Source: Candidatus Jordarchaeales archaeon (GTDB lineage Archaea > Asgardarchaeota > Jordiarchaeia > Jordiarchaeales > Freyrarchaeaceae). Taken from it: a stretch of 31,169 bases of DNA. The translations under genes and the position numbers were made by a program. Location of the stretch: assembly GCA_038889235.1 (NCBI GenBank), contig JAWAHN010000003.1, positions 22,437-53,605 of the forward strand. The letters run 5' to 3'. How positions within the stretch are numbered: the first letter of the stretch is position 1; every line of letters starts with the position of its first letter. This document shows positions 4,327 through 31,169 of this stretch, in pieces. Under the pieces are notes generated by a model that searched no databases, was not told the origin of the DNA, and saw nothing but the letters and a program-made list of their open reading frames with translations.

Positions 4327-4866
4327 ATGAAAAAATTTAAGCTCACGATAGAGCTTGTCCCCACCCCACTCTGGTTTTCATCTCTGTACAACCTTTACAG
4401 GAATGCTGGGATTCCTGAAGAGTGGCGTAGGATTAAAGCCGAACTTTTCAGAAAGGAGGGGAGAAAGTGTTGGATCTGTGGCAGGGAGGATAGGCGCTTG
4501 GAGGCTCACGAGTTCTGGGAGTACGATGACGAGAGACATGTTCAGAGACTTGTCGCTATACACCATCTGTGTGACCTCTGCCACAAGGTTAAGCACATAG
4601 GGTTCTGGTGTTACACTGAGGAGGGCAGGAGGAGGCTGAGGAGTGAGGGATTAAGCGAGGAGCATCTGATCGAGCACTTCTGTAGGGTTAACAACTGTTC
4701 CAGGGAAGAATTTGAGAAACACAAAAATGAGGCTTTCAGAGTTTGGATGGAGAGGAACATGCACTCGTGGACACAGGACCTCGGAGAATACGACCCTGAA
4801 AAGAGGAGGGCGAGGCTGCGGGGGCGTGAACCCAGCTCAAAAACGCCTACTAAGATGCCTTTATAA
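4327..4866 (+). CDS. HNH-like zinc-finger nuclease-family protein
   Basis: The ORF is open from 4117. However, ATG 4327 (MKKFKLTIELVPTPLWF...) follows GGCGGGTGGTG and an upstream TATA-like ATTATTTTAAAG (4255-4266). Motifs are CWICG...HEFWEYD...HHLCDLCHKVKH, i.e. CxxC/H/CxxCH..H as in small HNH proteins. Confidence 0.75.
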   Translation: MKKFKLTIELVPTPLWFSSLYNLYRNAGIPEEWRRIKAELFRKEGRKCWICGREDRRLEAHEFWEYDDERHVQRLVAIHHLCDLCHKVKHIGFWCYTEEGRRRLRSEGLSEEHLIEHFCRVNNCSREEFEKHKNEAFRVWMERNMHSWTQDLGEYDPEKRRARLRGREPSSKTPTKMPL

Positions 4867-6319
4867 GTGGGATTTCCTCCTCACCCTCACGATGAGCCGC
4901 CTTCCTCCTCGCCAGGAAGTCGTAGTATGTCTTGGCGTTTCTCAGTGCGTCGCACAGCCTCCTCATGTCCGGGTAAACAGGTATCCTCTCCTTGGCTAGT
5001 ATGTCCCTCAATTTAACCCATAGTGCCTCGTCACCTATGGGTGAGAGAACCACTGCGAACGGCTTCCCTTCTTTTATGGCTTTCTTGCCTGAACTCACCA
5101 GCGCATCGGTGAACTCTCCTTTGAACGCGTCACTCTGCCTCCAGTTGTAAGCCAGGTACATTACAGGAAGATCGAAGACTATCAAGTCTATGTTTGGGTC
5201 GCTTGCAATAGCATCTATGACGGTTGAAACAACTACCGGGTTGTAGTATGCACCCGACACGTCGACCGGGTTCGTGGCACTTATCCCCTCCGGGTAAACT
5301 CGTCTAACTTCCTCCTCTATCACTCTGACAGTTTCCTCGCTTAATGGGGGAACCTTGAACCCAGCCTCGGATAGGAGGTCGCTTATCGTAACGCTTGCTC
5401 CGCCACTAATGGACACGCTGCCAACCCTGTTCCCCCTCAACGGTGGAAGGAACGAGAATGTGAGCGCTGTGTCAACAAGCTCTTCAAGCGTCTTAACTTC
5501 GACAACACCCGTCTGCCTGAAAACCGCGCTCCATATCCTGTAGCTCCCAGCTAGAGACCCTGTGTGAGAGGCGCATGCCCGTGCCCCGTCCTCACTCCTC
5601 CCTCCTTTCCACACTACCAGAGGCTTCTTTAAGGAGACTTCTAGGAAAGCTTCTGCAAGCCTCTCAGCGCTCTTAACTCCCTCAATGTAGGCAGTCACAA
5701 CACGCGTCTCCTCGTCATCCTTAAAGTACGACAGCAGTTCTTCAAGCCCTATATCGCAAGCGTTGCCGTAGCTCACAACCTTGCTAAACCTCAACCCCCT
5801 AGTATAGCCGTAAAGTATCACAAGGTTAGCCAAGCCTCCACTTTGGCTCACGAAGGCGACGTCTCCGGGTTCAAGGGGGAGGTTTATCCTCCAGGCGAGA
5901 CCCACCCTGGGGTTGTAAAGGCCGAGGCAGTTCGGTCCAAGCACACGCGTGCGGGTCCCTTTAATGGTCTCCTTAATCTTTTCCTCCAGTTCTATGCCCT
6001 CCCTGCGCCCCGTTTCGCTGAAACCCGCCGTGAATATGGCGACGAGTTTTGCTCCTTTCTCGACGCAGTCCTTAACTATCTCTGGAACCGTGTGCGCCGG
6101 GGTTTCTATGAAGACGTAGTCGACTTTGTCCGGGATATCCGTCACTCGGGGGTAGACCTTTAACCCCAACTCCGGTATCTCGCTCCTACTGGGATTAACC
6201 ACGTACACTCTTCCCTTGAACCTTAGGAAAGACCTAAGGAAGAAATAGCCTCTTTTGCTTGAAGCCCCAACGTCAACTACTGTTTCAGGGTTAAAGGCTT
6301 CGTCTAACTCGCTCTTCAA
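4850..6319 (-). CDS. NDP-forming acyl-CoA synthetase alpha-subunit-like protein (CoA-binding + CoA-ligase domains, COG1042 type)
   Basis: Motifs: VDVGASSKRGYF (CoA-binding Rossmann), GPNCLGL, SQSGGL, and phospho-His loop ASHTGSLAG. No ATP-grasp (beta) part is present. The ORF is open to 6352. TTG at 6319 with GGAGG 9 nt upstream gives the usual N-terminus (MKSELDEAFNPETVV..). Confidence 0.85.
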   Translation of the reverse strand: MKSELDEAFNPETVVDVGASSKRGYFFLRSFLRFKGRVYVVNPSRSEIPELGLKVYPRVTDIPDKVDYVFIETPAHTVPEIVKDCVEKGAKLVAIFTAGFSETGRREGIELEEKIKETIKGTRTRVLGPNCLGLYNPRVGLAWRINLPLEPGDVAFVSQSGGLANLVILYGYTRGLRFSKVVSYGNACDIGLEELLSYFKDDEETRVVTAYIEGVKSAERLAEAFLEVSLKKPLVVWKGGRSEDGARACASHTGSLAGSYRIWSAVFRQTGVVEVKTLEELVDTALTFSFLPPLRGNRVGSVSISGGASVTISDLLSEAGFKVPPLSEETVRVIEEEVRRVYPEGISATNPVDVSGAYYNPVVVSTVIDAIASDPNIDLIVFDLPVMYLAYNWRQSDAFKGEFTDALVSSGKKAIKEGKPFAVVLSPIGDEALWVKLRDILAKERIPVYPDMRRLCDALRNAKTYYDFLARRKAAHREGEEEIPLIKAS

Positions 6320-6926: not shown

Positions 6927-7667
6927 ATGCTGGCTAAGCTCGTAGACATACCTGTGAGTAAGCGTTTACGCGTCGTAGCGTTAACTGGAGCCGGTGTTTC
7001 AGCCGAGAGTGGTGTCCCCATTTTCCGGGGCCCGGGATCCATGTGGGAGATTCCAGAGGTTAGAGAGCTTGCCCGTAGGGCTGGTCCACCGTGGAATAAC
7101 AGGGAGACATGGGAGTTCTACGAGTGGAGGAGGGGGCTTGTGGCGCGCTGCAAGCCTAACGCCGCCCACCTAACGCTTGCGGAGATGGAGCGTTACTTTG
7201 AAGACTTCTGCCTCATAACGCAGAACGTCGACGGGCTCCACTGGAGGGCTGGAAGCAAGCACGTCCTCGAGCTTCACGGCAGTATGTGGAAGGGACGGTG
7301 CCCCAAGGATGGAGCCGTAGTAGATCTTCCCGAAACGCCTCTCAAGAGCATTCCGCCAGTGCACGAGTGTGGAACCCCAATGCGCCCCCACGTCGTGCAG
7401 TTCGGAGAGCCAATAGACCCCGACGTTTTGAGGAAGGCTGTGGCCGCGAGCAGAAAGGCTGACCTATTCCTCGTCATCGGCACTTCCGGCGTTGTGGCAC
7501 CTGCATCCCACCTTCCTCTCATAGCCCTCGAAAGAGGGGCGAAGCTCATAGAAGTTAACCCCAGAACCACAGTCCTGACTCCATACATGCACCTCTCCGT
7601 CAGGGGTAAAGCTGCAGAAGTTTTACCAAGAATTTGGAAGATACTTGTCGGCGAAGAAAAATATTAA
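6927..7667 (+). CDS. cobB: NAD-dependent protein deacylase (Sir2/CobB sirtuin)
   Basis: Canonical motifs: GAGVSAESGVPIFRG, TQNVDGLH, ELHGS (catalytic His), VVQFGE, VIGTSGVV. The ORF is open from GTG 6849, but ATG 6927 gives the usual short N-terminus before GAG. Confidence 0.9.
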   Translation: MLAKLVDIPVSKRLRVVALTGAGVSAESGVPIFRGPGSMWEIPEVRELARRAGPPWNNRETWEFYEWRRGLVARCKPNAAHLTLAEMERYFEDFCLITQNVDGLHWRAGSKHVLELHGSMWKGRCPKDGAVVDLPETPLKSIPPVHECGTPMRPHVVQFGEPIDPDVLRKAVAASRKADLFLVIGTSGVVAPASHLPLIALERGAKLIEVNPRTTVLTPYMHLSVRGKAAEVLPRIWKILVGEEKY

Positions 7668-9269: not shown

Positions 9270-9519
9270 CCTTTTAAATCAGAGTATACCACCCCGCTCA
9301 GGAACCTATTCTACTTAACTCCTCCGAAGCAAATGTAGCACCGGGCAACGTCCATTAAACATGAAATAGATGGGCGGCTCTTCCTCTTTTTTATTTCTGT
9401 CGAACCTCCTCTCAGTCGGCAGTTTTCCACGTGAACATCTTTCTCGCTACGGGCAGCCCCCTAAAGGAGGAAATCTTAAAAAGGGTTTTTAATTCTTATA
9501 CGGGTTGGGGGGGTTTGTA

Positions 9520-10566
9520 ATGTCATTTCTTAAGCCTCCATCTCCCGATGAGGTCTTCTCGATATGGGTTAGCGGGATGAGAGATGACGAGGTCGAGGAG
9601 CTTTTCGCCCGAAAGGATATGCCGTTCGATAGGTCAAGCGTGTCTGCCGCGGAATTTGTTAAGGAAGTTGACAGGAAGATCGCAGTATTTTTCATGTCAA
9701 AGGTTGAAACCGAAAGTTTAGAGTCTGAAAAGAAGGAGAGCAACTACGAAGGACTGCTAAAAGTTAAATTCTACGAGTTCCCTAAGGGGAAGGTTTCACC
9801 CGAACTCAAGCTAGACTCTAGGCTCCCCATGTTCAACTCGCTAGAGAAAGTTGAGTGCTCTGAATGTGCCGGTAAAGGCTATCTCGAGTGCGATAAGTGC
9901 GGTGGAAAAGGAACTTTACCTTGCAGTGAATGTGGCGAGAGCGGAGAGGTTTCTTGCGATGAGTGTGATGGATCCAAAGAGATTACGCTAACCCTGAGCG
10001 TTATTTCGAATGGAGAGGAAGTGGAGAAGGAGCTGAAAATCCAGTGCCCCACGTGCTTCGGCTCCGGAAAAGTGGTGTGTGGCAAGTGTGGCGGGCTCAC
10101 CAAGCTCGTCTGCAACGAGTGCGAAGGAGACGGCAAGTTCCCCTGCAAGAAGTGTAAAGGCGCCGGCATTGTTTTCTCATACAGCATCTCGCCCCCGCCT
10201 GTTTCAGGGAAAAAAGCTTACCTCATATACTCTAAGCCCGAGATAGATGAAGCTTTATCAGAAATGCTGGTGGATAAGATAAGCCAGCTTGAAGCCGTAA
10301 AGGTGAACGACTACAAACAACTTAACAAAGACGACCTAGAAGCCCTGCTCGGCTTCTACAACAAGGACGTAGACAGTAAAGCCAGCAGGGCGAGGAAACT
10401 TTTCGCTGAACTCGAAAAGAAAGCCGACAAGACTGGTGAAACACCACTCTACCCAATATACATATTCCCGATAGTAAGGCTGGACGTAGAAACAGTCAAA
10501 GGGAAAAGAATACAAGTGTTTGCGGTGGGGGGCGAGAAAAACTACACCACAATCACACTGCGATGA
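9520..10566 (+). CDS. Orphan protein with eight DnaJ-type CxxCxGxG zinc-finger units flanked by unknown N- and C-terminal domains
   Basis: The ORF is open from 9505. ATG 9520 follows GGTTGGGGGGG and a TATA-like TTTTTAATTCTTATA (9487-9501). The central region carries CSECAGKG, CDKCGGKG, CSECGESG, CDECDGS, then CPTCFGSG, CGKCGG, CNECEGDG, CKKCKGAG. Confidence 0.85.
   Translation: MSFLKPPSPDEVFSIWVSGMRDDEVEELFARKDMPFDRSSVSAAEFVKEVDRKIAVFFMSKVETESLESEKKESNYEGLLKVKFYEFPKGKVSPELKLDSRLPMFNSLEKVECSECAGKGYLECDKCGGKGTLPCSECGESGEVSCDECDGSKEITLTLSVISNGEEVEKELKIQCPTCFGSGKVVCGKCGGLTKLVCNECEGDGKFPCKKCKGAGIVFSYSISPPPVSGKKAYLIYSKPEIDEALSEMLVDKISQLEAVKVNDYKQLNKDDLEALLGFYNKDVDSKASRARKLFAELEKKADKTGETPLYPIYIFPIVRLDVETVKGKRIQVFAVGGEKNYTTITLR
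9856..10167 (+). repeat. Intragenic tandem 11-codon (33-nt) CxxCxGxG units, two blocks of four separated by a 23-codon spacer
   Basis: Read from the translation. Units start at residues 118, 129, 140 and 151, then 181, 192, 203 and 214, using ORF numbering from 9505. The 11-residue period within each block is exact. Confidence 0.85.
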
Positions 10567-10786: not shown

Positions 10787-11182
10787 GTGGATTTAGACAA
10801 AGCAATCGTGGTAGTCGCTAGGCGCATGAATAAACGCGCAGAGGAGCTGAGAGGGAGAACTCCAATTGTCGAGGTAATCGATCATGTTATGAGCGAAACT
10901 AAGTGTAAGAATTATGAAGAATTCTTTAGAATTCTTCTTGAGAATCCAAGGGTGCTTTATGATCTGGCTTCACTAAGAGTGAAAAACGCGATAGTTGACT
11001 CGTTTTTAAGCATGTTGTTCACGGAAATTTTCTCGAGGTTTGGCTTAGGAGAGTTGGGCCCCCTCCTCCTCGAAGCTATAAAAGCCGGGGACAAGGCAGA
11101 AGTCAAAAAGATTTTTCTGAAAGTTGCTGAAGCCGTGAAGGAAGCAGAAGAGAAAGAAAGTAAAACCTCTATCGAAACATAA
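10787..11182 (+). CDS. Hypothetical helical protein
   Basis: 131-aa ORF with a GTG start 8 nt after GGAGG (10775-10779). A TATA-like TTTTTATATATC lies at 10717-10728 and an oligo-T tract follows the stop. No family recognised. Confidence 0.7.
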   Translation: MDLDKAIVVVARRMNKRAEELRGRTPIVEVIDHVMSETKCKNYEEFFRILLENPRVLYDLASLRVKNAIVDSFLSMLFTEIFSRFGLGELGPLLLEAIKAGDKAEVKKIFLKVAEAVKEAEEKESKTSIET

Positions 11183-11728
11183 TTTTTCTCTTACCTTTTG
11201 CTCATTACGAAAAAGGGAAGGGGGCTTGAATGCTCCTCAGCTCGCCGGGCTAGAAAGTGGCCACCAAGCTTTGGTGTAAGTGAAGCTTAAATTAGTCGAC
11301 TTCGTTGTCATGTTGCTTACATGGGAAGCTTTGTCCGCGAATGTAATTTTAGAAAAACAGGAAACATTCTCTTGCCTGCTTAAGGCTTAACTTGGCATTG
11401 CTGAGATTTTCTTGAGGCAAGCGTTCTTCTGTCGGAGCTGTGTCACTCAACCCGGCGCTTGTTCTTTCAACCATACGAGCTTTAACGAGCGAAAACTTGC
11501 TTCCAAGTACATTTCCGTCTCTCTCACAATTCCTCGTATTGCAGCGACTTATAGGCGTCCCGGCGTTTGCTGTTTTTCCAGAAGTGCTACTGAAGTTTCA
11601 CCTGTTTTAATTTCTTTTGCAGCCCTCATACGCTGCTTCCTGAGCTTGGGTCTTCTGAGGACATTTTCCAGCGCGCATGTGATACCGTTCGTTTGGAAAT
11701 GTCGTTTCACACTGTTCGAATTAAGACG

Positions 11729-11740
11729 TAAAATTTAAAA
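11729..11740 (+). promoter_or_regulatory. TATA-like box of the ECF module promoter
   Basis: TAAAATTTAAAA lies ~40 nt upstream of ATG 11778 and directly abuts the inverted repeat. Confidence 0.55.
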
Positions 11741-11742
11741 CT

Positions 11743-11776
11743 TTGGTAATACTTTTTTGTAAAACAGTAATATCAA
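11743..11776. promoter_or_regulatory. Operator-like inverted repeat TTGGTAATAC-N14-GTAATATCAA (NikR-box-like geometry)
   Basis: Each 10-mer half matches the corresponding half of the 17611-17644 site at 9/10 positions with identical 14-nt spacing. It lies between the TATA-like box and the start codon. Confidence 0.6.
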
Positions 11777-11777
11777 T

Positions 11778-12572
11778 ATGAGGGTGTGCACCGTGCGCGG
11801 CTACTTTACGACGCGAGACCTAGCATACGTGTCCGTCACAACCGTGATGGTCTACGTGGTTGCTTTTGTGGCCATAATGAGTGTTTCGGCGTTCACAGCA
11901 TTTCCGGGAGCTAAGTCCATCGCGTCAGCCTTCTTCACGGCGATAGTGCTCGCCTTGGGCGCCATGAGGGTCAGAAAAATCGGAGTGATGAGCTTCGTAA
12001 CACTCCTGTGGGGCCTAATAAGCGCCTTCCTCTTCCCAGCAGTCCCCATACTCCTCCCCGCTACGCTAAGTGGTGGAGTAGCCGCAGACATCCTAGTCTT
12101 CCTTCTCAGAAAGGACTACTCAAGTGAGAGCGCGACCACCATTGCTTGCGGCGTCAGAAGCGGCGTCTCAACGCTCGTTGTGCTGTTGCTGGTGCTGGTT
12201 TTCGGCTCAAGCTCGCTTAGAGGCGCACCGCTCATCTTCCAATTATATGGTGCCACGCTGAGAGTGCAGGCTTTCCTCATGTTCATCAGTTTGGCGGGTG
12301 TTCCACCAGATGTCGCGTCGCTCTTCGGAGTGATTCTTACCGTGGGTGTTCTAGGCGCCTTCATGCCGAACTTGGGTGTTCCGGGGGAAATTGTGGCGTT
12401 TGCCGCGCCACTCCTGAAATTGCTAGGTGTTCAGGCTGGTGGCGTTGAAGCAGTGTTAACCCCATCGCTGATCGTCGTTATTTCGGCTCTTTGCTTCGCT
12501 CTTGGAGCCGCTGGCGGGTATGTTGGGGCACGCATAGGCAGGGAGCTTAAACTCGCGGGGGTTTACAGGTGA
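11778..12572 (+). CDS. Polytopic membrane protein, putative substrate-capture (S) component of the adjacent ECF transporter
   Basis: 264-aa ORF, almost entirely hydrophobic (about 7-8 TM segments). It is the first gene of an operon, with a GTGA overlap into the T component. It is longer than typical S components and no family signature was recognised. Confidence 0.72.
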   Translation: MRVCTVRGYFTTRDLAYVSVTTVMVYVVAFVAIMSVSAFTAFPGAKSIASAFFTAIVLALGAMRVRKIGVMSFVTLLWGLISAFLFPAVPILLPATLSGGVAADILVFLLRKDYSSESATTIACGVRSGVSTLVVLLLVLVFGSSSLRGAPLIFQLYGATLRVQAFLMFISLAGVPPDVASLFGVILTVGVLGAFMPNLGVPGEIVAFAAPLLKLLGVQAGGVEAVLTPSLIVVISALCFALGAAGGYVGARIGRELKLAGVYR

Positions 12573-13339
12573 TGCTGAGAGGGCTTCAGCTGACTAGCAC
12601 TAACACGTTTCTTAACGGCGTCGATCCGAGAGTCAAACTAGTGTTCGTTGCGGCTGTGAGTGTACTAAGTCTCGCTTTGAGCTCCTTTACCTCCCTTCTT
12701 TTTCTAGCACTGCTTCCAACTCTCACTCTGTCACTCGCTAGGGCGCTTGGCAGGGCTAGATTCTTCATTGTTTCGTTTCTCGTATTTTCTGCTCTGAGCG
12801 TTTTCGTTGTCTACCTTTTGAGGTTTGGCAGCGCTCTGGAATTTGCCAAGTTCTTTGTTAGGGTCTTCGCAGTGATGAACGCCGGCTTGTTCTTCGCTTT
12901 TACCACCTCACCCAACAAGTTTTCTAGGGGGCTTGAAAAGCTAAAGGTTCCGCGTTCAGTCTCCTTCACACTCACATTAACTATCAGGTTTATCCCTGTC
13001 TTTTTAAAGGAGGCGGAAGAAGTGTTGTCATCGTTGAAGGTGAGGGGGGTGAAGCTTGGGATAAGGGGGTTCATCAAAAACCCGAAGGTAGTATTACGGT
13101 CCTTGACCATACCTCTTATTGTACGCATGGTAAAAACCTCGGACGACCTGGCATCCGCCCTGGAGTCTAGAGGGTTTGGAAGCCCAGCTAAGAAGACCAG
13201 CCTTCACGAGGTGAAGGTAGGGAAGGTTGACTTAGCCTTCCTGTCCATCACTATGGCTTTCCTCGTCTCCCTCCTCTTGTTGGACCCATCCTTCTTCAGC
13301 TTTCTCGACTTTACAGCTTTCTGGAGGTTTATGGTTTGA
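12569..13339 (+). CDS. ECF transporter transmembrane (T) component, EcfT/CbiQ family
   Basis: 256-aa ORF with N-terminal GVDPRVKL and two Arg-Gly coupling motifs (SSLKVRGV, ALESRGFG). Start and stop overlap both neighbours. Confidence 0.85.
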   Translation: MMLRGLQLTSTNTFLNGVDPRVKLVFVAAVSVLSLALSSFTSLLFLALLPTLTLSLARALGRARFFIVSFLVFSALSVFVVYLLRFGSALEFAKFFVRVFAVMNAGLFFAFTTSPNKFSRGLEKLKVPRSVSFTLTLTIRFIPVFLKEAEEVLSSLKVRGVKLGIRGFIKNPKVVLRSLTIPLIVRMVKTSDDLASALESRGFGSPAKKTSLHEVKVGKVDLAFLSITMAFLVSLLLLDPSFFSFLDFTAFWRFMV

Positions 13340-14991
13340 GCGTTGAGGTCGAGCGTTTAAGTTATCGCTATCCCAACGCGGAAAGTGACTCGCTCGTCAA
13401 CGTCGACTTGAAGGTTAGTAGAGGAGAGTTCGTTCTCCTCGTTGGTAGAAGCGGTTGCGGTAAGACGACGCTGGCTAGGTGCATCAACGGACTTATACCA
13501 CACGTGTTCAAGGGCGAACTCAGGGGGGTAGTTAGAGTTGACGGGGTCAACGTGGCTGAGACTCCCGTGTATGAGATGGCTAAACTCGTCGGCATGGTTT
13601 TTCAGAACCCTGACACTCAGCTCTGCACGTTAACTGTGGAAGACGAGGTTGCCTTCGGCCCTGAGAACATTGGAGTTGAGAGAAGCGAAATTGAGGAGAG
13701 GGTTAAGTGGTCTCTTTCAAGTTTAGGGTTGGAAGGTCTTAGGTGGCGGAGCACTTTCAGTTTGTCCGATGGAGAAAAACAAAGGGTGGCTGTGGCGGCC
13801 GCCCTATCCATGCTTCCAAAGGTTCTAGTGCTTGATGAGCCAACGGCGAACCTCGACCCGAAAGCCTCCGAGATGCTCGTCGACACACTGAGAAAGTTGA
13901 GAGACAAGTATGATACCACGATTATACTAGTTGAGCACAGAGTTGACAGGTTCATTGAAGCGGCTGACAGAGTTGTCGTGATGGATTCAGGGAGAATAGT
14001 CGAAGACGGGCCTCCAGAAGTTGTAGTCAGGAAGGCCGACGTATTGGAGAAGTTGGGAATTCGAGTGCCTGAAGTCGTCGAGCTGTGTAAAGCGGTTGGG
14101 ATACCCCTAAACGGGGGGTTAGACGAACTTAGGTTCCTGGCCTTAGAGAGGATGAGGGAGCTGAGAGAGGCGAGCTTCGTCAACGACTGTTCGAGTCGCG
14201 GCGAGGAAATCCTGAGAATGGAGGATGTTGTGCTCAGTTACGGCGGTGTGTTCAGCCTTAGAGTTGACTTCTTCTCATTGTGCAGGGGGGAAGTTGTTGC
14301 TGTTATAGGTGGTAACGGCTCAGGAAAGACGACTCTCGCCAAGCTCATAGCTGGGCTCGTGAAGCCGAAAAAGGGTAGCATAAAAAGAGCGAAGGGTCTT
14401 AGGGTTGGGATGGTTTTCCAGAACTTCGAGGTTCAACTTTTCAGAAGTTCTGTCTTCGACGAGGTTGCCTTTCAACTCACCGAGAAGCTAGACCCAAACC
14501 ACGTTAAACGTAGGGTGGAATCCGTCCTGGCGGAGATGGGGCTCCTAAGTCTAATCGGCAGACACCCTCACTCCTTGAGCCAGGGTGAGAAGCAGAGAGT
14601 AGTCATAGCGTCTTTGATCGTCGACCCGCCGGACATACTCATACTCGACGAGCCGACAACAGGACAGGACGGGCATCACCTCAAAATACTGGAGGAAGCG
14701 GTGAAGAAAATGAAGATGAGCGGCGTGGCCACCGTTGTCATAACACACGACTTGTCCTTCGCCGCAAGGGTGGCAGAGCGGGCGGCGGTGGTGAGCGGCG
14801 GGAGAATCGCGATGACAGGAGACATCAGAGACATTTTGTACAAAATAGACGAGCTTGCAGGCTTCACCCCTCCAGAAACCGTTAAACTAGCGAGGGAAGC
14901 GGGATTAAGAGGGATTATTAAGCCAGGGGACTTTCAGGGTGTGTTCTGCAGCAAAGATGTGAGGAGTAGTATCGTCCAATGGGGTTATTAA
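13336..14991 (+). CDS. Fused double ABC ATPase of an ECF transporter (EcfA1-EcfA2 / YkoD-like)
   Basis: 551-aa ORF with two full cassettes. Walker A: GRSGCGKTT and GGNGSGKTT. Q-loop: VFQNP and VFQNF. Signature: LSDGEKQRV and LSQGEKQRV. Walker B: VLVLDEPT and ILILDEPT. H-loops: VEHR and ITHD. Confidence 0.93.
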   Translation: MSVEVERLSYRYPNAESDSLVNVDLKVSRGEFVLLVGRSGCGKTTLARCINGLIPHVFKGELRGVVRVDGVNVAETPVYEMAKLVGMVFQNPDTQLCTLTVEDEVAFGPENIGVERSEIEERVKWSLSSLGLEGLRWRSTFSLSDGEKQRVAVAAALSMLPKVLVLDEPTANLDPKASEMLVDTLRKLRDKYDTTIILVEHRVDRFIEAADRVVVMDSGRIVEDGPPEVVVRKADVLEKLGIRVPEVVELCKAVGIPLNGGLDELRFLALERMRELREASFVNDCSSRGEEILRMEDVVLSYGGVFSLRVDFFSLCRGEVVAVIGGNGSGKTTLAKLIAGLVKPKKGSIKRAKGLRVGMVFQNFEVQLFRSSVFDEVAFQLTEKLDPNHVKRRVESVLAEMGLLSLIGRHPHSLSQGEKQRVVIASLIVDPPDILILDEPTTGQDGHHLKILEEAVKKMKMSGVATVVITHDLSFAARVAERAAVVSGGRIAMTGDIRDILYKIDELAGFTPPETVKLAREAGLRGIIKPGDFQGVFCSKDVRSSIVQWGY

Positions 14992-15315
14992 GAAAAGTTA
15001 CCCGCCTCCAAGCATGAAAGGGAAGAGCGCAAGGCGCTCCCCGTCATAGATTGACGAAAGCACCTATCCACCACAACCCCACCTTCGAATGCTGGGCGAA
15101 ACCCTTCCCAATTTTCTGGCTTCGACGCCATGAACAACTTTTAGTTGAGAAACAGCTGGGTTAAACAGCATTCACGTGCTCCTCTCTAGTTATGGCAGCA
15201 TTTCACCTTTTACATCGTTCATCCCGTTAGTTACGCCGTTTGTCGATTTCCTCTGAAGGAGCCCGGGGTGTTGGAAGGCGAAAGTAGCCGCTACCCGGGC
15301 GCTTACCCCTTTTTC

Positions 15316-16140
15316 CTAGCTGGAAAATATCATTCGTCCATTCACGAACACGAGGAGTTTTCCCGGCTCGACCGACCTCCACTTTTCGTTAGTGAGGTAT
15401 ACTGGTTTAGGTGAGTAGTTGAGGGAGAGAGTTGTCACCAGGACGCCTTGCAGGCCTTTTTCCTTCCCTTCTTGCAGGATGACTTCTTCCTCACTGTCTA
15501 TTAGTCGCGTAGTTGGGAACGGCGCCATCCTAAAGGTTAACGCCATGCCATTGTAGCCTTCACTGTCATGGTAGACGAAAAGGTGTTCCCCGTCGCTCAT
15601 GGCGCAGTTGAGGAAAAAGTATTCGTTGATCTCGGCGAGCTTGTCTGCGAGCCACGAGAAGCCGTCTTCATCCCACGTCTCCACTCCACTCTCCATGCAG
15701 GCGAGAAGGTGGCAGAAAATGTACTCAGAACCCGTCTCGCCGTACGGTTTAAAATTTCCCAGCGGAAACCTCCTCTTAAACTCCAACCTTCTAAAGTTCC
15801 GCTTGAGGGAGCCGTTGTGCGCGAAAACATAGGTTTTGCCCTTCAGCTCCCTGCGAAAAGGGTGGGTGTTCTCGCAAGATGGGGGAGATAAACGCATGTT
15901 TGACGCGCGGCGAACGTGTGCAACAAAAATTTTGGATCGCACTTGCACGTCGGTTATCAGTGAGGTAAAAAGCCTGCTTTCCAGCGCCGTAGCAGGCTCC
16001 TTAACCACCCGCGCGGCTCCATCCTGGTACCATGCAACACCCCACCCATGCCAGTTAAACTTGCCCTTCACTCTAAAACCCCTAAGAGAGAAAGAAGCTG
16101 TAACAGGCTTATTGAAGCACATCGCTAGGAGGTCACACAA
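15316..16140 (-). CDS. Class II (Ntn-type) glutamine amidotransferase domain protein, YafJ-like
   Basis: 274-aa ORF beginning MCDLLAM (catalytic Cys2 after Met). HGWGVAWY, AHVRRAS, NTHPF and FAHNGS blocks are typical of GATase_2/COG0121. Confidence 0.87.
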   Translation of the reverse strand: MCDLLAMCFNKPVTASFSLRGFRVKGKFNWHGWGVAWYQDGAARVVKEPATALESRLFTSLITDVQVRSKIFVAHVRRASNMRLSPPSCENTHPFRRELKGKTYVFAHNGSLKRNFRRLEFKRRFPLGNFKPYGETGSEYIFCHLLACMESGVETWDEDGFSWLADKLAEINEYFFLNCAMSDGEHLFVYHDSEGYNGMALTFRMAPFPTTRLIDSEEEVILQEGKEKGLQGVLVTTLSLNYSPKPVYLTNEKWRSVEPGKLLVFVNGRMIFSS

Positions 16141-17597: not shown

Positions 17598-17607
17598 GTT
17601 TATAAAA
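17598..17607 (+). promoter_or_regulatory. BRE/TATA box of the cbiM/nikM promoter
   Basis: GAAAAG followed by TTTATAAAA, ~55 nt upstream of GTG 17659. Confidence 0.65.
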
Positions 17608-17610
17608 CAT

Positions 17611-17644
17611 TTGGTATTACTTTAAGACAAAAAAGTAATACCAA
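17611..17644. promoter_or_regulatory. Perfect inverted repeat TTGGTATTACTTT-N8-AAAGTAATACCAA (NikR-box-like operator)
   Basis: 13-bp perfectly complementary arms, read directly. The core GTATTA-N16-TAATAC has the geometry of the E. coli NikR operator GTATGA-N16-TCATAC. It covers the expected transcription start. Confidence 0.7.
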
Positions 17645-17658
17645 GGTAGGGTGGTAGA

Positions 17659-18402
17659 GTGCACATACCCGATGGGTTCCTCGACCTGGGAGTAACTATG
17701 GTGTGCGCGGCGATCTCGGCGGCTTTCATCGTGATAGGGGTTATTCAGGCAAAGCGATACATGGACGAAAGACACGTCCCCTTAATGGCTGTATTGACGG
17801 CCGGAGTCTTCGCAGCCCAGCTGCTCAACTTCCCGATAATAGGCGGGACAAGCGGGCACCTGGTTGGAGGAACACTGCTAGCGGTCTTTCTAGGACCCCT
17901 CGGCGCTCTCCTTTCCATGACCGTCATCCTAGCAGTCCAAGCTCTCTTCTTCGGTGACGGTGGCATCACAGCCCTAGGGGCTAACATACTGAACATGGGC
18001 GTCATAGGAGGCATCATAGGCTACTACGTTTACATCTTAGTTAGAAGGCTGGTGGGCAAAGGTGGATGGGGTGTAAGGATCGGAGCAGCTGTAGGCTCAT
18101 ACATCTCGGTAGTCCTAGGAGCCATAGCCTGCGGGGTTGAACTAGGTGTCTCGTCGCTCTTCCCCTTCCCCACCTGGATCACGGTTCCAGTGATGACGGG
18201 GTGGCACATGGTGATAGGGATTGGAGAAGCGCTGATAACCTTAGTTGTCATCGAGTACGTCCTTAGGGCTAGGCCGGACATGCTAGCCCTCCCTAAGGTA
18301 GGCTTCCGCGGCCTGCTAAAAGGCGTTAAAAGTGAGGAGCTGGAGGCGATGGAGAAAAAGGAGCTTGAAACCGTGACCGGAAAAGTGGCTGGAGGGGGTT
18401 AA
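17659..18402 (+). CDS. cbiM: ECF-type Ni/Co transporter substrate component CbiM/NikM
   Basis: 247-aa ORF starting with the invariant MHIPDGFL (Met1-His2 metal-binding N-terminus), with 6-7 TM segments. The GTG start is preceded by GGGTGG. Confidence 0.94.
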   Translation: MHIPDGFLDLGVTMVCAAISAAFIVIGVIQAKRYMDERHVPLMAVLTAGVFAAQLLNFPIIGGTSGHLVGGTLLAVFLGPLGALLSMTVILAVQALFFGDGGITALGANILNMGVIGGIIGYYVYILVRRLVGKGGWGVRIGAAVGSYISVVLGAIACGVELGVSSLFPFPTWITVPVMTGWHMVIGIGEALITLVVIEYVLRARPDMLALPKVGFRGLLKGVKSEELEAMEKKELETVTGKVAGGG

Positions 18403-18403
18403 T

Positions 18404-18919
18404 GTGGCGTCGATAGTTGAAGCGATAAAGGCTACCTGGCGCCAGAGGTGGTTTAGGCTCAGCGTCCTAGCAGGGGTAATAGTGATAGGATTCTTCCTAC
18501 CGCTTGCATCAACAGCTCCCGACGGCCTGGAGCGAACCGTAGAGAGTTTGGTCCAACCGCTAGACATCACGTTGATGCTTATTTACTACGGCGAGGTGAC
18601 AGGGGAGACGGGGCCCCTGAGTGCTTGGCTAACCTTCCTGGGAATCAACTACCTGTTGCGGGCGCCGATGCCAGACTACGTGTTGCTTCAGCTAGCTCCG
18701 GGGGTTTATGTGAGCTACGTGCTTGAGATGATGAGTGCGCTCCAAGTGCTGGGACTAGCATCCTTCGAAATTCCAGAAGACGTCGTAGCGCTGCTGCTTA
18801 GCTCGGCTGGCGGACACGAGTATCTGGCATCTCTCACAGCGTCGCTAATAGGTTTCTTCGTGGTTCTCGGAGTAACCTGGCTGGTTGGCTTCGCCCTCAA
18901 GAAGAGGAAGGCGGCTTAA
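18404..18919 (+). CDS. PDGLE-domain membrane protein (CbiN/NikN-position accessory component)
   Basis: It starts 1 nt after the cbiM stop. The layout is an N-terminal TM, then the literal PDGLE motif (STAPDGLERT), a later APMPDY, and a C-terminal TM plus basic tail. At 171 aa it is longer than the ~100 aa I recall for this domain. Confidence 0.8.
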   Translation: MASIVEAIKATWRQRWFRLSVLAGVIVIGFFLPLASTAPDGLERTVESLVQPLDITLMLIYYGEVTGETGPLSAWLTFLGINYLLRAPMPDYVLLQLAPGVYVSYVLEMMSALQVLGLASFEIPEDVVALLLSSAGGHEYLASLTASLIGFFVVLGVTWLVGFALKKRKAA

Positions 18920-18945
18920 GCTCCGCCGGGACGCCATGGGCGTTT

Positions 18946-19021
18946 GAGGGGGCTGCCGGGGGGTTTACACAGTCCACCGCCCCCCACGTAACCCTCCCCC
19001 TCCCGGCACCCCCCTTTTTTT
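18946..19021 (+). terminator. G/C-run hairpin followed by T7 (intrinsic-terminator-like element)
   Basis: GGGGG(c)TGCCGGGGGG (18948-18963) can pair with CCCTCCCGGCACCCCC (18998-19014). The core is TGCCGGG/CCCGGCA plus G-run/C-run flanks. TTTTTTT (19015-19021) follows immediately. Oligo-T is the archaeal termination signal. Confidence 0.55.
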
Positions 19022-19053
19022 GGTATTATTTCGAACAAAAAGAATATTAACTC
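19020..19053. promoter_or_regulatory. Degenerate third copy of the operator-like repeat
   Basis: The left half TTGGTATTAT matches the 17611 site at 9/10 positions, and the A-rich centre (GAACAAAAAG) is similar. The right half GAATATTAA matches only loosely, needing a 1-nt gap. It lies 40 nt upstream of the cbiQ start. Confidence 0.4.
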
Positions 19054-19092
19054 TGGACTTCATGTTTCCTTCAAAACTCGGAGGAAGCAGCG

Positions 19093-20016
19093 GTGCGTGG
19101 AGCCGGTTTCAAGGAGTTTTTCGAGCTGTTCGAGCGTCTTCTCGACGCTGAAAGGTTTAACAGTATAAATTCACCTGTCCACAGGCTTGACCCCCGTGTC
19201 AAGATACTTGCTTCCACAGCCATCATACTGTCCGCCATAGCCGTGGACGGCTTCTTCTACCTGATACCGTTAGCGTTCGCAGTCCTGTTTTTGCTGTCCA
19301 TCTCTAGGCTGCCTAGGGCTGTGTTTCTCTCCCGCTCACTTCCCTTCACTCTTCTCAGCGCACTGGTCGTTCTACCGGCCCCATTTGTGACCCCCGGGGT
19401 TCCCGCTGCAACAATTCACCTCCCCCTGGTCACCGTCACCCCGACATTTGAGGGGGTTTACAGGGCTGTAACCTTCGTTTTTAGAGTTTGGATCTGCATA
19501 TCTTCGGCGCTGCTCCTAACTTTCACGACGAGATTCCCAGATATCGCCGCAGGGTTAAGGGGGATGGGGTTTCCATCCCTCCTTTCATTAATCCTGCTCC
19601 TAACATACAGGTACTCCTTCCTCTTCGCCGACGAGGCTTTGAAGATGCTTCAAGCAAAGGAGTCTAGGACGCTTAAAAAGGAGGGCTTCTTCGAGAGGGT
19701 TAGGTTAGTTGGAAAAATGACCGGCTGCCTTCTCTTGAGAGCCTACGAGAAGGGTGAAGAAGTTTACTACGCCATGAGCTTGAGAGGCTTCCATGGAGAG
19801 CTGGCTCCAACGGTCTCCAAGCTCAAGCTGAGGGCGTGTGACGTGGCGTTCGCCGTGGCGTTCACCGCGTTTTGCCTCACCGTTGCCCTGCTTGGGTGGG
19901 GTGGTCCATCTTTTGTGGCGTTCTGGCTTCCACTCGCCAAGATAATCGTGGTCAAAGCTTTGCTAAGGTGGGTCGTGTTAATAATACCTTTGTCGGGGGG
20001 CTTCGCTGTTGCGTAG
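19093..20016 (+). CDS. cbiQ: ECF transporter T component CbiQ/NikQ
   Basis: 307-aa ORF with HRLDPRVKIL near the N-terminus and Arg motifs QAKESRT and AMSLRGF. It is polytopic. The GTG start lies 8 nt after GGAGG. Confidence 0.87.
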   Translation: MRGAGFKEFFELFERLLDAERFNSINSPVHRLDPRVKILASTAIILSAIAVDGFFYLIPLAFAVLFLLSISRLPRAVFLSRSLPFTLLSALVVLPAPFVTPGVPAATIHLPLVTVTPTFEGVYRAVTFVFRVWICISSALLLTFTTRFPDIAAGLRGMGFPSLLSLILLLTYRYSFLFADEALKMLQAKESRTLKKEGFFERVRLVGKMTGCLLLRAYEKGEEVYYAMSLRGFHGELAPTVSKLKLRACDVAFAVAFTAFCLTVALLGWGGPSFVAFWLPLAKIIVVKALLRWVVLIIPLSGGFAVA

Positions 20017-20878
20017 TGTGGTTCTCGAAGCTGACGACGTCTGGTTCACCTACCCTGACGGCACACAGGCGTTGAAAGGAGTAAGCTTCAGGGTGTTTAG
20101 TGGGGAAACCGTGGTCCTGCTCGGGCCTAGTGGGGCTGGTAAGTCAACTCTGCTCCTCCACTTCGCGGGCATACTGTTTCCCACGTCTGGCAGCGTCTAC
20201 GTTTGCGGCGAAAGGGTTTCGAGAAGGAACGTCAGAGAGGTGAGGAGACGCGTGGGCTTCGTCTTCCAGAACCCTGAAAGCCAGCTCTTCTGCCCGACCC
20301 TCTGGGAGGATGTGGCCTTTGGCCCAATTAACATGGGACTTCCGCCGGACGAGGTTGAGAGAAGGGTTAGGATGGCGCTGGAAGCCGTCGGCCTCCTAGA
20401 CTACGCCCGTAAGCACCCTCACCACCTGAGTTTCGGGGAGAAGAGGAGAGCTGCCCTCGCCACAGTTCTATCCATGGACCCCGAGATATATCTCTTCGAC
20501 GAGCCGACAGCAAACCTTGACCCAAAAAACGCCTCGTATGTCGTCGGCAAGATAGTGCAGCTTTCAGAGGAGGGGAAAACCGTTCTAGTAGCAACACACG
20601 ACATCAACATGCTTCCACAAGTGGCTTCGAGAGTCGTCGTTATGAGCGGCGGCAGAGTTGTCTCAGACGGGAAGCCGGAGGAGGTCCTTTCAGACTTCAA
20701 GCTCATCGAGGAAGCCGGGTTACAGCCGCCAGTGGTCACAAGCCTCCTCCATGGCATTCACGAAGAAGGAATACTGAACGTAGATACGCCGTACCCGATC
20801 TCCCTGGAGGCTGCGAAGTGGAAGATAAGGGAGAGCGTGAAGAAACTGCTGGAGGGTGCACGAAGCCCTGCAAAGTAA
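20009..20878 (+). CDS. cbiO: ECF transporter ATPase CbiO/NikO
   Basis: Motifs: Walker A GPSGAGKST, Q-loop VFQNP, signature LSFGEKRR, Walker B IYLFDEPT, H-loop ATHD. The start is either TTG 20009 (overlapping the cbiQ stop) or GTG 20018. Confidence 0.93.
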   Translation: MRSVVLEADDVWFTYPDGTQALKGVSFRVFSGETVVLLGPSGAGKSTLLLHFAGILFPTSGSVYVCGERVSRRNVREVRRRVGFVFQNPESQLFCPTLWEDVAFGPINMGLPPDEVERRVRMALEAVGLLDYARKHPHHLSFGEKRRAALATVLSMDPEIYLFDEPTANLDPKNASYVVGKIVQLSEEGKTVLVATHDINMLPQVASRVVVMSGGRVVSDGKPEEVLSDFKLIEEAGLQPPVVTSLLHGIHEEGILNVDTPYPISLEAAKWKIRESVKKLLEGARSPAK

Positions 20879-25302: not shown

Positions 25303-25334
25303 CTTACATATTTTCCTAGTTGGGAGGGTTTGGT

Positions 25335-25753
25335 GTGCTGGATGAGGAGGAGTATTCGAGGTGGATTAGGTCTGCTTTGAGTTCTGCTAGGGGTGACTTA
25401 GAGAAGGGTGATTACAACTGGGCTTGTTTTAAGGCTCAGCAGGCGGCTGAGTTTGTTGTCAGGGGGCTATTTCACGGGCTCGGTTTTCCTGCCTATGGAC
25501 GTAGTGTGTCGAAGTTGTTTGAATGTCTCCCAGAGAGTTTAAGTGCTGAGTGCCCTATTTGGGAAGCTAGAGTTTTGGACAGGTATTATATTCCAATTAA
25601 GATATCCTAACGCTTGGGCGGAGGGGTTCCAGCCGACTACTATATGAGGGAAGACGCTGAAAAAATGCTATTAATTAATGCCGAAAAATCATTGAGTGGG
25701 TGGATGAAAAGTGGAGGTTGTTAAGGAGAGAAGGCGTGTTAGAGAAGAAGTGA
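25335..25753 (+). pseudogene. HEPN-domain toxin gene, disrupted (in-frame stop within a +1/-1 indel patch, plus a further -1 shift)
   Basis: Frame 0 gives MLDEEEYSRWI...DRYYIPIKIS*. The conserved continuation RYPNAWAEG is in frame +1 (25600-25626). VPADYYMREDAEKMLLINAEK is back in frame 0. IIEWVDEKWRLLRREGVLEKK* needs one more A in the A5 run at 25684-25688. Confidence 0.72.
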
Positions 25754-30766: not shown

Positions 30767-31169
30767 TCACGTTTTCAAGGCAAGCTCCCTAACACTGGTG
30801 TACACTTTCACGTTGTTCGCCTTAGCGTACTCCTCAGCCTTGGGATGCACGAAAGGAGAAACTATTACCAAGGAGGGCTTAACCTTCTCCACAGCCTCGT
30901 AAAGCTTCGCTTTGTCAAGGAACTTGTCTACGTCCTCCTTGCTCACGCTAGACTTAATCTCGACCAAAACATGCTCTCTGTCCCTAATTAACACATCAAC
31001 TTCTATCACGCTCGGCTTCTTGAATACCATGCACTCCGAGTCATAATACTCCCACTTGCTCACTTTAACACCATACCTTTCCAACAAACCACGGAGCCCT
31101 TCCCTAAAAGCCTCCTCACTAGCCAAACCCCACCTAGCACCCAAACCACCTAATATCTCCCCAACCTTC
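30767..31169 (-). CDS. PD-(D/E)xK-fold protein, DUF3782-like (5' end beyond the window)
   Basis: LGARWGLASEEAFREGLRGLLE, then IEVDVLIRD...LVEIKSS (D...ExK nuclease-fold motif). The reading frame stays open upstream of the listed TTG to the window edge, so the gene is probably 5'-partial. Confidence 0.75.
   Translation of the reverse strand, partial: KVGEILGGLGARWGLASEEAFREGLRGLLERYGVKVSKWEYYDSECMVFKKPSVIEVDVLIRDREHVLVEIKSSVSKEDVDKFLDKAKLYEAVEKVKPSLVIVSPFVHPKAEEYAKANNVKVYTSVRELALKT

Follow-up and report, generated by a model that had tools for sequence, protein, structure and literature searches.

Two transporter operons of the energy-coupling factor (ECF) type, lying 6 kb apart and both on the + strand, were found in the region of interest of a 31,169 bp stretch of archaeal DNA (hereafter the window, meaning the whole stretch that was analysed). 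The upstream operon (11793-14991) encodes an S component, a T component and a fused double ATPase (AA′) and is designated S-T-AA′; the downstream one (17659-20878) is a cbiM/nikM-type operon with four genes (Table 1). The S protein of the first operon and the CbiM of the second are 100% identical to NCBI proteins assigned to 'Candidatus Jordarchaeales archaeon', an Asgard archaeon. Here we describe an operator common to both operons, which reads as a NikR-type box, and the S component of the S-T-AA′ operon, which is assigned to the MptD/Trep_Strep family.

A shared operator upstream of two ECF operons

Operator 1, TTGGTAATAC-N14-GTAATATCAA at 11743-11776, and operator 2, TTGGTATTAC-N14-GTAATACCAA at 17611-17644, have an identical 14-nt spacing and mismatch at 2 of the 20 specified positions. 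An initial annotation of this DNA, made from the sequence alone, had given the same positions and spacing, with a match of 9/10 in each half, and all of this was confirmed. Not one of 100 dinucleotide shuffles yielded any operator match, and the 7+14+7 core, with up to two mismatches allowed, occurs at only two places in the 31-kb window (0.11 expected). These shuffles, together with the conservation across loci described below, rule out a chance palindrome. Both operators are situated directly 3′ of a TATA-like box and end 1-17 nt before the first possible start codon, and operator 1 covers the expected transcription start, ∼26 nt downstream of the TATA centre. The initial annotation was thus correct in placing operator 1 directly after a TATA-like box, whereas its choice of ATG 11778 as the start of the S gene has to give way to GTG 11793 as the more probable one, because all 11 homologs begin with MRGYF or MKGYF and the Shine-Dalgarno-like GAGGGTG precedes this GTG. 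The element had also been called a palindrome. The half-site core GTAWTAC is palindromic but for its centre base, so that one nucleotide alone distinguishes an inverted from a direct arrangement; judged by this nucleotide, operator 2 is indeed a perfect inverted repeat, whereas operator 1 reads as a direct repeat. Riboswitch control of the S-T-AA′ operon was ruled out, since no Rfam match was obtained in the window at gathering thresholds and none at E ≤ 1 between 11150 and 11850.

Table 1. Features of the two ECF operons and their promoters (window positions).
Feature	Position	Strand	Basis
TATA-like box ATTTAAAA of the S-T-AA′ operon promoter	11733..11740	+	read from sequence
Operator 1, NikR-box-type, core GTAATAC-N14-GTAATAT at 11746-11773	11743..11776	.	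shuffles; ortholog conservation (L001-L009); published NikR box architecture
Shine-Dalgarno-like GAGGGTG serving GTG 11793	11781..11787	+	GAGGGTG, GAGGTG or GGTG at the equivalent ortholog position
S component, 259 aa (264 aa if from ATG 11778), divergent MptD/Trep_Strep	11793..12572	+	PF09605; NCBI name
T component, CbiQ/EcfT type	12569..13339	+	PF02361, 93.9 bits
Fused EcfA-EcfA′ double ATPase, 551 aa	13336..14991	+	two ABC_tran domains; TIGR04520, TIGR04521
TATA box TTTATAAAA of the cbiM/nikM operon	17599..17607	+	TATA-like, 5′ of operator 2
Operator 2, perfect inverted repeat, core GTATTAC-N14-GTAATAC at 17614-17641	17611..17644	.	conserved at cbiM orthologs (L010-L015)
CbiM/NikM-type metal S component, N-terminus MHIPDG	17659..18402	+	PF01891, 205 bits
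PDGLE-domain membrane protein in NikN/CbiN position	18404..18919	+	PF13190, 27.7 bits (cut-off 27)
CbiQ/NikQ T component	19093..20016	+	PF02361, 138.6 bits; TIGR02454, 141 (cut-off 111.8)
CbiO/NikO ATPase	20009..20878	+	family searches

Conservation of the palindrome upstream of orthologous operons had been set beforehand as a test, and it was followed in nine fetched S-T-AA′ loci (L001-L009, S-protein identity 52-81%) and in six Jordarchaeia cbiM loci (L010-L015, CbiM identity 60-83%). The operator was present in all of them. In the nine S-T-AA′ loci it lies just downstream of a TTTAAA-type TATA element, which is kept in 7/7 of the promoters aligned, and the gene order S-T-AA′ is identical throughout; in the six cbiM loci it is again found downstream of a TATA-like element, directly in L010 and L011 and ∼25 nt further on in L012-L015. 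The half-sites are kept among orthologous loci while spacers and flanks vary. S operons of the closer clade carry a single site, those of the more distant clade two tandem sites 9 nt apart, and no other copy of the operator was detected in ∼190 kb of fetched Jordarchaeia loci. Since the palindrome is conserved across the orthologous loci, the operator stands. In the distant clade represented by L012-L015 the cbiM genes are arranged in the order cbiQ-cbiO, box, cbiM-PDGLE, so that only the M and N-like genes are located behind the operator.

A divergent MptD-type S component with a lineage-specific insertion

The initial annotation regarded the product of the first gene, counted there as 264 amino acids, as a membrane protein with no recognisable signature and as a candidate for a previously undescribed capture component. 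Neither description was upheld: the protein matches Pfam PF09605 (Trep_Strep) with 34.2 bits against a gathering cut-off of 28.7, and NCBI lists an identical protein under the name 'MptD family putative ECF transporter S component'. Judged by its sequence, it is assigned, as a divergent S component, to the already named MptD/Trep_Strep family. The same annotation had named assignment to a known vitamin-type S-component family as an outcome that would speak against it, and this came about by half, as the protein falls into a described family, but one that has no known substrate.

An exhaustive profile search covering 1.84 billion representative proteins returned only one full-length cluster of the form seen in the S protein. 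The 35 other matches at E < 1e-3 were mostly proteins of 175-218 amino acids, with a few short fragments, and nearly all of them aligned in two stretches. In the alignment, the matches to the ∼180-residue relatives are divided by an insertion of ∼80 residues between core helix 5 and the last core helix (6). The AlphaFold2 model (predicted local distance difference test score, pLDDT, 87; predicted template modelling score, pTM, 0.70) comprises nine helices, six belonging to the core, which shows the six-helix fold of S components, and three to the insertion (residues 147-167, 172-190 and 198-210), within which the motif MPNLG is invariant. The large size of the protein is thus a Jordarchaeia-specific three-helix insertion in a normal six-helix core; the extra size that had led to its being called an unusually large membrane component is real, but it represents no new architecture. 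Among solved structures, the group I S component YkoE (5edl) is matched by the MptD-family profile along its full length with E = 3e-4, and Foldseek gave this same structure as its match of highest probability, with poor E-values. Invariant polar residues of the S protein are R13, K67, D104, Y114, E117, R127, R148, N198 and E224.

The remaining genes of the operon agree well with the initial annotation, which had described three tightly overlapping genes with a CbiQ-type T component, a fused double ATPase and group I ECF architecture, all of which were substantiated by gene junctions and family matches. S and T genes overlap through GTGA or TGATG; the T gene probably starts at ATG 12572, which overlaps the S stop codon, and in the orthologs 1 nt is shared with the S gene. 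Between T and AA′ the overlap is TTGA (4 nt). A motif search of the T component detected both xRG motifs, VRG/IRG at residues 157/164 and SRG at 199. In the double ATPase, Walker A, signature, Walker B and H-loop motifs are all present twice, and the protein scores above the cut-offs of TIGR04520 and TIGR04521. With S, T and two ATP-binding cassette (ABC) ATPase domains predicted from one operon, S-T-AA′ is by its gene content a dedicated (group I) ECF system. In the cbiM operon, the best NCBIfam matches of the M subunit were cobalt-transporter CbiM models, all below their cut-offs, and CbiN models matched the PDGLE-domain protein only far below cut-offs.

NikR-type boxes and MptD-like genes in metagenomes

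The delta-proteobacterial NikR box GTGTTAC-[N13/14]-GTAACAC (PMC545781) has the same 7-bp half-sites and two-turn spacing as the Jordarchaeia operator, from which it differs by one base per half-site. Metagenomes of the Joint Genome Institute (JGI) were scanned with the exact pattern GTAATACTTTT-N10-GTAWTAC, which yielded at least 120 loci, the counts from which represent a sample and not a census; nikR homologs in these loci were located with an Escherichia coli NikR query. Among the matches listed (120 loci), the motif was found 40-90 nt upstream of a nikR homolog in nine, and in a tenth nikR locus (L112) the motif adjoins a cbiMQO cluster whose opposite end holds nikR. Within the same 120 loci it stands directly upstream of a CbiM homolog in 12, cbiM lying ∼2.3 kb off in L118, and directly before an MptD-like gene in the case of one PF09605 member and nine small membrane proteins. 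One of the NikR homologs was confirmed by NCBIfam (NF002169, 151.6 bits versus 111; NF003381, 127.8 versus 105), all of them possess the invariant H, H, H and C ligand residues, and proteins 85-94% identical to the NikR of L069 bear the name NikR in Bathyarchaeia. Adjacency to nikR in about one in 12 motif-selected loci is beyond chance, and on this ground the shared element reads as a NikR-type operator. Because of the NikR box type and the placement of the exact motif at nikR and nikM genes in metagenomes, the factor acting on both operons is very probably metal-sensing, as the initial annotation had proposed from the operator shared with cbiM. NikR sites upstream of nikMNQO in methanogens are said to have been described by Rodionov and colleagues in 2006.

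Several matches of the scan were discarded. In L091 (313-610), the pattern was matched through the periodicity of a satellite of ∼14 tandem 21-bp repeats GGGAGAAGTATTACTTTGAAT containing a half-site, and matches in phage-like coding sequences (L051, L059, L062, L067 and L089), at an AbrB/MazE-type gene (L044 group) and in an intergenic region of a gut bacterium (L022 group) were treated as chance or unrelated. FmdE-like proteins, recognized by eye from the motifs FHGHLG...CFVDGVQ..TGCT with no confirming family search, are encoded directly behind NikR-type boxes in L052 (551-1249, − strand), L096 (830-1321) and L113 (∼260-704, − strand), and in L052 an S-component-like gene (PF09819 ABC_cobalt, 28 bits) comes next after the FmdE-like one. 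These FmdE-like genes may be further members of archaeal nickel regulons.

The MptD-like gene in L040, directly behind a NikR-type box, encodes a bona fide PF09605 member (33.6 bits). The nine small six-helix membrane proteins belong to no Pfam or NCBIfam family, but a profile-profile comparison by hhalign shows them to be homologous to the MptD-like set, with a probability of 97.7% (E = 2e-12, 172 columns). Five of the nine, all from Bathyarchaeia, are encoded divergently from nikR, with the box between both genes (L024, 687-1259; L069, ∼4475-5010; L109, 5788-6315; L130, ∼7090-7615; L131, 3134-3661). These ∼176-residue proteins possess an invariant Cys-Asp, an Asp and a His, have no T or ATPase gene adjoining, and are candidates for an undescribed nickel-uptake family. 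A second related group of 178-192 residues (MPYFxTRD..., motif FHLPFLCD) occurs in L084 (36-602), L078 (∼2071-2640), L113 (886-1461) and L104 (448-984), where the NikR-type box lies 6-13 nt before the start codon. We put forward only tentatively, as less probable than not, the wider view that MptD-like S components, including the Jordarchaeia form with its insertion and the Bathyarchaeia proteins divergent from nikR, may be widespread, unrecognised NikR-controlled importers of nickel, probably as a chelate, in archaea.

As to the other relatives of the S protein, two of the three nearest ∼180-residue ones that could be placed on contigs are encoded in operons that also specify either a CobN-like chelatase together with a TonB-dependent receptor and CbiQ, or a ChlI/ChlD-like protein; the third carries no NikR-type box within 200 nt. 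In L141 (1213-6584) and L143 (87-5458), a relative of ∼180-190 residues overlaps the 3′ end of a CobN-like gene encoding 1263 residues, with the TonB-dependent receptor upstream and CbiQ downstream, and in L140 (3307-5582) a relative adjoins a ChlI/ChlD-like AAA-VWA gene. Such neighbourhoods hint at a metal chelate or a tetrapyrrole as the substrate of that branch. The mptDEF operon of Mycobacterium avium subsp. paratuberculosis, the namesake of the family, is induced 4-13-fold by zinc starvation (PMC4298942).

Proposed nickel regulation, probable substrate and relation to known systems

The interpretation we favour, with confidence only modestly above even, is that a NikR-type operator controls both ECF operons and that the MptD-type importer most likely brings in nickel, more probably as a chelate, during nickel limitation. 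Archaeal repressors generally block the recruitment of RNA polymerase, and it is on this basis that the position of the operators between TATA box and start codon fits repression; it is the binding of NikR in this organism, the repressing effect of nickel and the nature of the substrate that we infer. When nickel is sufficient, nickel-loaded NikR would occupy two half-sites 21 bp apart over the transcription start and so keep RNA polymerase out. Under scarcity of nickel both importers would be produced, and the second, S-T-AA′, would supply nickel as well. The metal would reach the S subunit preferably as a complex with an organic ligand, a nickel chelate being more probable than the bare ion because the S subunit is without histidine and without a conserved cysteine.

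A number of observations weigh against this interpretation. The PF09605 match spans only residues 12-142, i.e. the N-terminal ∼130 residues, and the score of the S protein with TIGR02185 ('MptD family putative ECF transporter S component'), 24.3 bits, is far below the cut-off of 76.45. Moreover, histidine is absent from the protein, neither of its two cysteines is conserved, and nothing in it resembles a nickel site. The S-T-AA′ operon is missing in a close relative (L010/L011, CbiM 83% identical) and is therefore dispensable or variably present, and one close relative outside Jordarchaeia (P0135, locus L139) has no NikR-type box within 200 nt upstream. Finally, a search with a NikR hidden Markov model (HMM) detected no nikR in any open reading frame (ORF) of the window or of the 18 Jordarchaeia loci L001-L015 and L136-L138, nor was nikR found in the 10 kb beyond the left end of the window, the right end being covered by a short contig only, and a protein search with a NikR profile returned Bathyarchaeia proteins only. 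The Jordarchaeia sequence searched for nikR amounts to ∼250 kb and not to a whole genome.

Control by NikR could be combined with a substrate other than nickel, such as a cofactor, a tetrapyrrole or another metabolite needed when nickel enzymes fail, or a different metal complex. We consider this a serious alternative, if a rather unlikely one. Organic micronutrients are the usual ligands of S components, and the profile of the family is similar to YkoE, which binds hydroxymethylpyrimidine (HMP)/thiamine precursors; MptDEF responds to zinc and not to nickel; relatives are encoded beside CobN-like chelatases; and NikR regulons elsewhere hold non-transport genes, for example those of hydrogenase. 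Nickel as the substrate is nevertheless favoured by the direct placement of MptD-like genes behind a NikR-type box in 11 independent loci among the matches listed, often paired with nikR, which is the typical position of a primary uptake target, and by the lack of any co-transcribed biosynthetic or nickel-sparing gene in the window.

The initial annotation had instead taken the S protein for a new capture subunit with direct binding of free Ni2+ or Co2+, at a site other than that of CbiM/NikM, and this we judge to be improbable. In NikM/CbiM, the N-terminal Met1-His2 together with His67 forms a planar metal site with four nitrogens (PMC3945884). Such a site is impossible in the S protein, which starts with MRGYF, not MHIPDG (as had been correctly noted), and has no histidine at all; lacking in addition a conserved cysteine, it is unlikely to capture free nickel or cobalt directly. 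Regulation is shared with a CbiM-type operon, ECF metal S components do exist, and the invariant D104, E117, N198 and E224 together with MPNLG of the insertion could in principle ligate a metal; however, the family is already a known one, and the TonB receptor and CobN-like chelatases beside its relatives suggest bulky chelated substrates. The metal-uptake role first proposed remains plausible as a metal-related role, free-ion capture being the unlikely part of it. That the palindrome is bound in Jordarchaeia by another regulator, or by a NikR paralog sensing for example cobalt, so that the likeness to a NikR box would not imply nickel control, is very improbable, for, although no nikR turned up in the Jordarchaeia sequence and the M subunit is closest to cobalt-transporter models, the identical 7-14-7 motif accompanies confirmed nikR genes of several further lineages of archaea, a distance of two helical turns between the half-sites typifies published NikR boxes, and the partner of CbiM is a PDGLE protein and not CbiN.

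Several features of the surroundings were recorded in the course of the analysis. Between a 133-residue gene and a GATase_4 gene of L010/L011 (2532-5121), which corresponds to 10787-16140 of the window, S-T-AA′ is replaced by a PIN/MazE toxin-antitoxin pair. Upstream of the operon, a gene for a cysteine-rich protein of 353 residues (9505-10566) with weak matches to DnaJ-type CXXCXGXG zinc fingers and a gene for a protein of 131 residues without a family (10787-11182) form a conserved pair, also seen in L003, L010 and L137. As candidates for a local regulator, this 131-residue ORF and one of 108 residues (11412-11738), which is probably not a gene, were rejected, as neither had a Pfam match above the gathering cut-off or a NikR-profile match. 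The interval 11183-11500 is not obviously coding, is partly conserved with L004 (1290-1700; blocks TTAAGGnTTAACTT and GGAnCTGTGTCACT) and gave no Rfam match; it could harbour a small RNA or a small protein, or be what is left of a gene. A P-type cation ATPase of ∼900 residues (E1-E2 ATPase, Cation_ATPase_N/C) adjoins the cbiM operon in L010 (7124-9841), L012 (12138-14951) and L013 (5063-7876) and is absent from that position of the window. HEPN genes are located in the window (25320-25610), in L003 (3704-5423) and in L137 (3215-3929), the nucleotidyltransferase gene being paired with the HEPN gene in L137 and merely near it in L003, and a PD-(D/E)XK/DUF3782 gene occupies the right end of the window (30767-31144).

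What is new in this locus is the regulatory context and the structural insertion, while the transporter type and the orphan S-component family were already known. Thousands of genomes carry MptD/Trep_Strep proteins under the annotation 'putative ECF transporter S component', a family to which no substrate has been assigned. One of them, MptD, is needed for the virulence of M. avium subsp. paratuberculosis. The occurrence of a NikR-type operator before MptD-family genes, independently in several archaeal lineages, offers a hypothesis that is cheap to test, namely uptake under nickel limitation, probably of a complex. If true, this would be the first assignment of a substrate class to the orphan family PF09605, would point to uptake of metallophores or metal chelates by ECF transporters, and would provide Asgard and Bathyarchaeia archaea, which are expected to rely on nickel enzymes, with a second route of nickel acquisition. 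The description of the NikR box is also extended to an archaeal GTAWTAC-N14-GTAWTAC form, which can be used for mapping nickel regulons in uncultured archaea. Our literature search found no paper joining NikR, energy-coupling factor and regulon, which leaves a prior description of the archaeal box or of a link between NikR and MptD unsettled.

Among known systems, the closest are those of the MptD/Trep_Strep family itself. Like mptDEF, the Jordarchaeia operon encodes a homologous S component with a CbiQ-type T component and ABC ATPase domains as a dedicated module, and both are linked to metal limitation, mptDEF being induced by zinc starvation and the Jordarchaeia operon being predicted, from its NikR-type box, to respond to a shortage of metal. 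They differ in size, the family typically having ∼180-190 residues as against 259 in the Jordarchaeia S protein with its three-helix insertion, and in the signal, which is Zur for mptDEF as opposed to a NikR-type box in an Asgard archaeon. With YkoEDC, the ECF system for HMP/thiamine precursors, the operon has the dedicated S-T-ATPase architecture in common. No solved structure other than YkoE (5EDL) shows a detectable relation to the family profile, and this likeness is very distant. A thiamine riboswitch governs YkoE systems, whereas the Rfam searches found none for S-T-AA′. NikMNQO and CbiMNQO, which Rodionov and colleagues reportedly described in 2004 and 2006 as nickel/cobalt transporters under NikR, likewise belong to group I and share the CbiQ-type T component, the CbiO-type ATPase domains and, to judge from the neighbouring cbiM operon, the type of operator and its position in the promoter. 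In contrast, NikM/CbiM and the Jordarchaeia S protein, which has neither MHIPDG nor an equivalent of His67, are unrelated, and S-T-AA′ is without an accessory N, K or L subunit and has its two ATPase domains fused in one polypeptide. The Jordarchaeia box, finally, resembles the NikR operators published for E. coli (GTATGA-N16-TCATAC) and for delta-proteobacteria in having two half-sites, separated by about two turns of the helix, in front of genes for nickel uptake, and is set apart from them by its half-site GTAWTAC, by an orientation of the centre base that varies between sites, by the tandem arrangement of sites in one clade and by its association with an archaeal TATA-box promoter.

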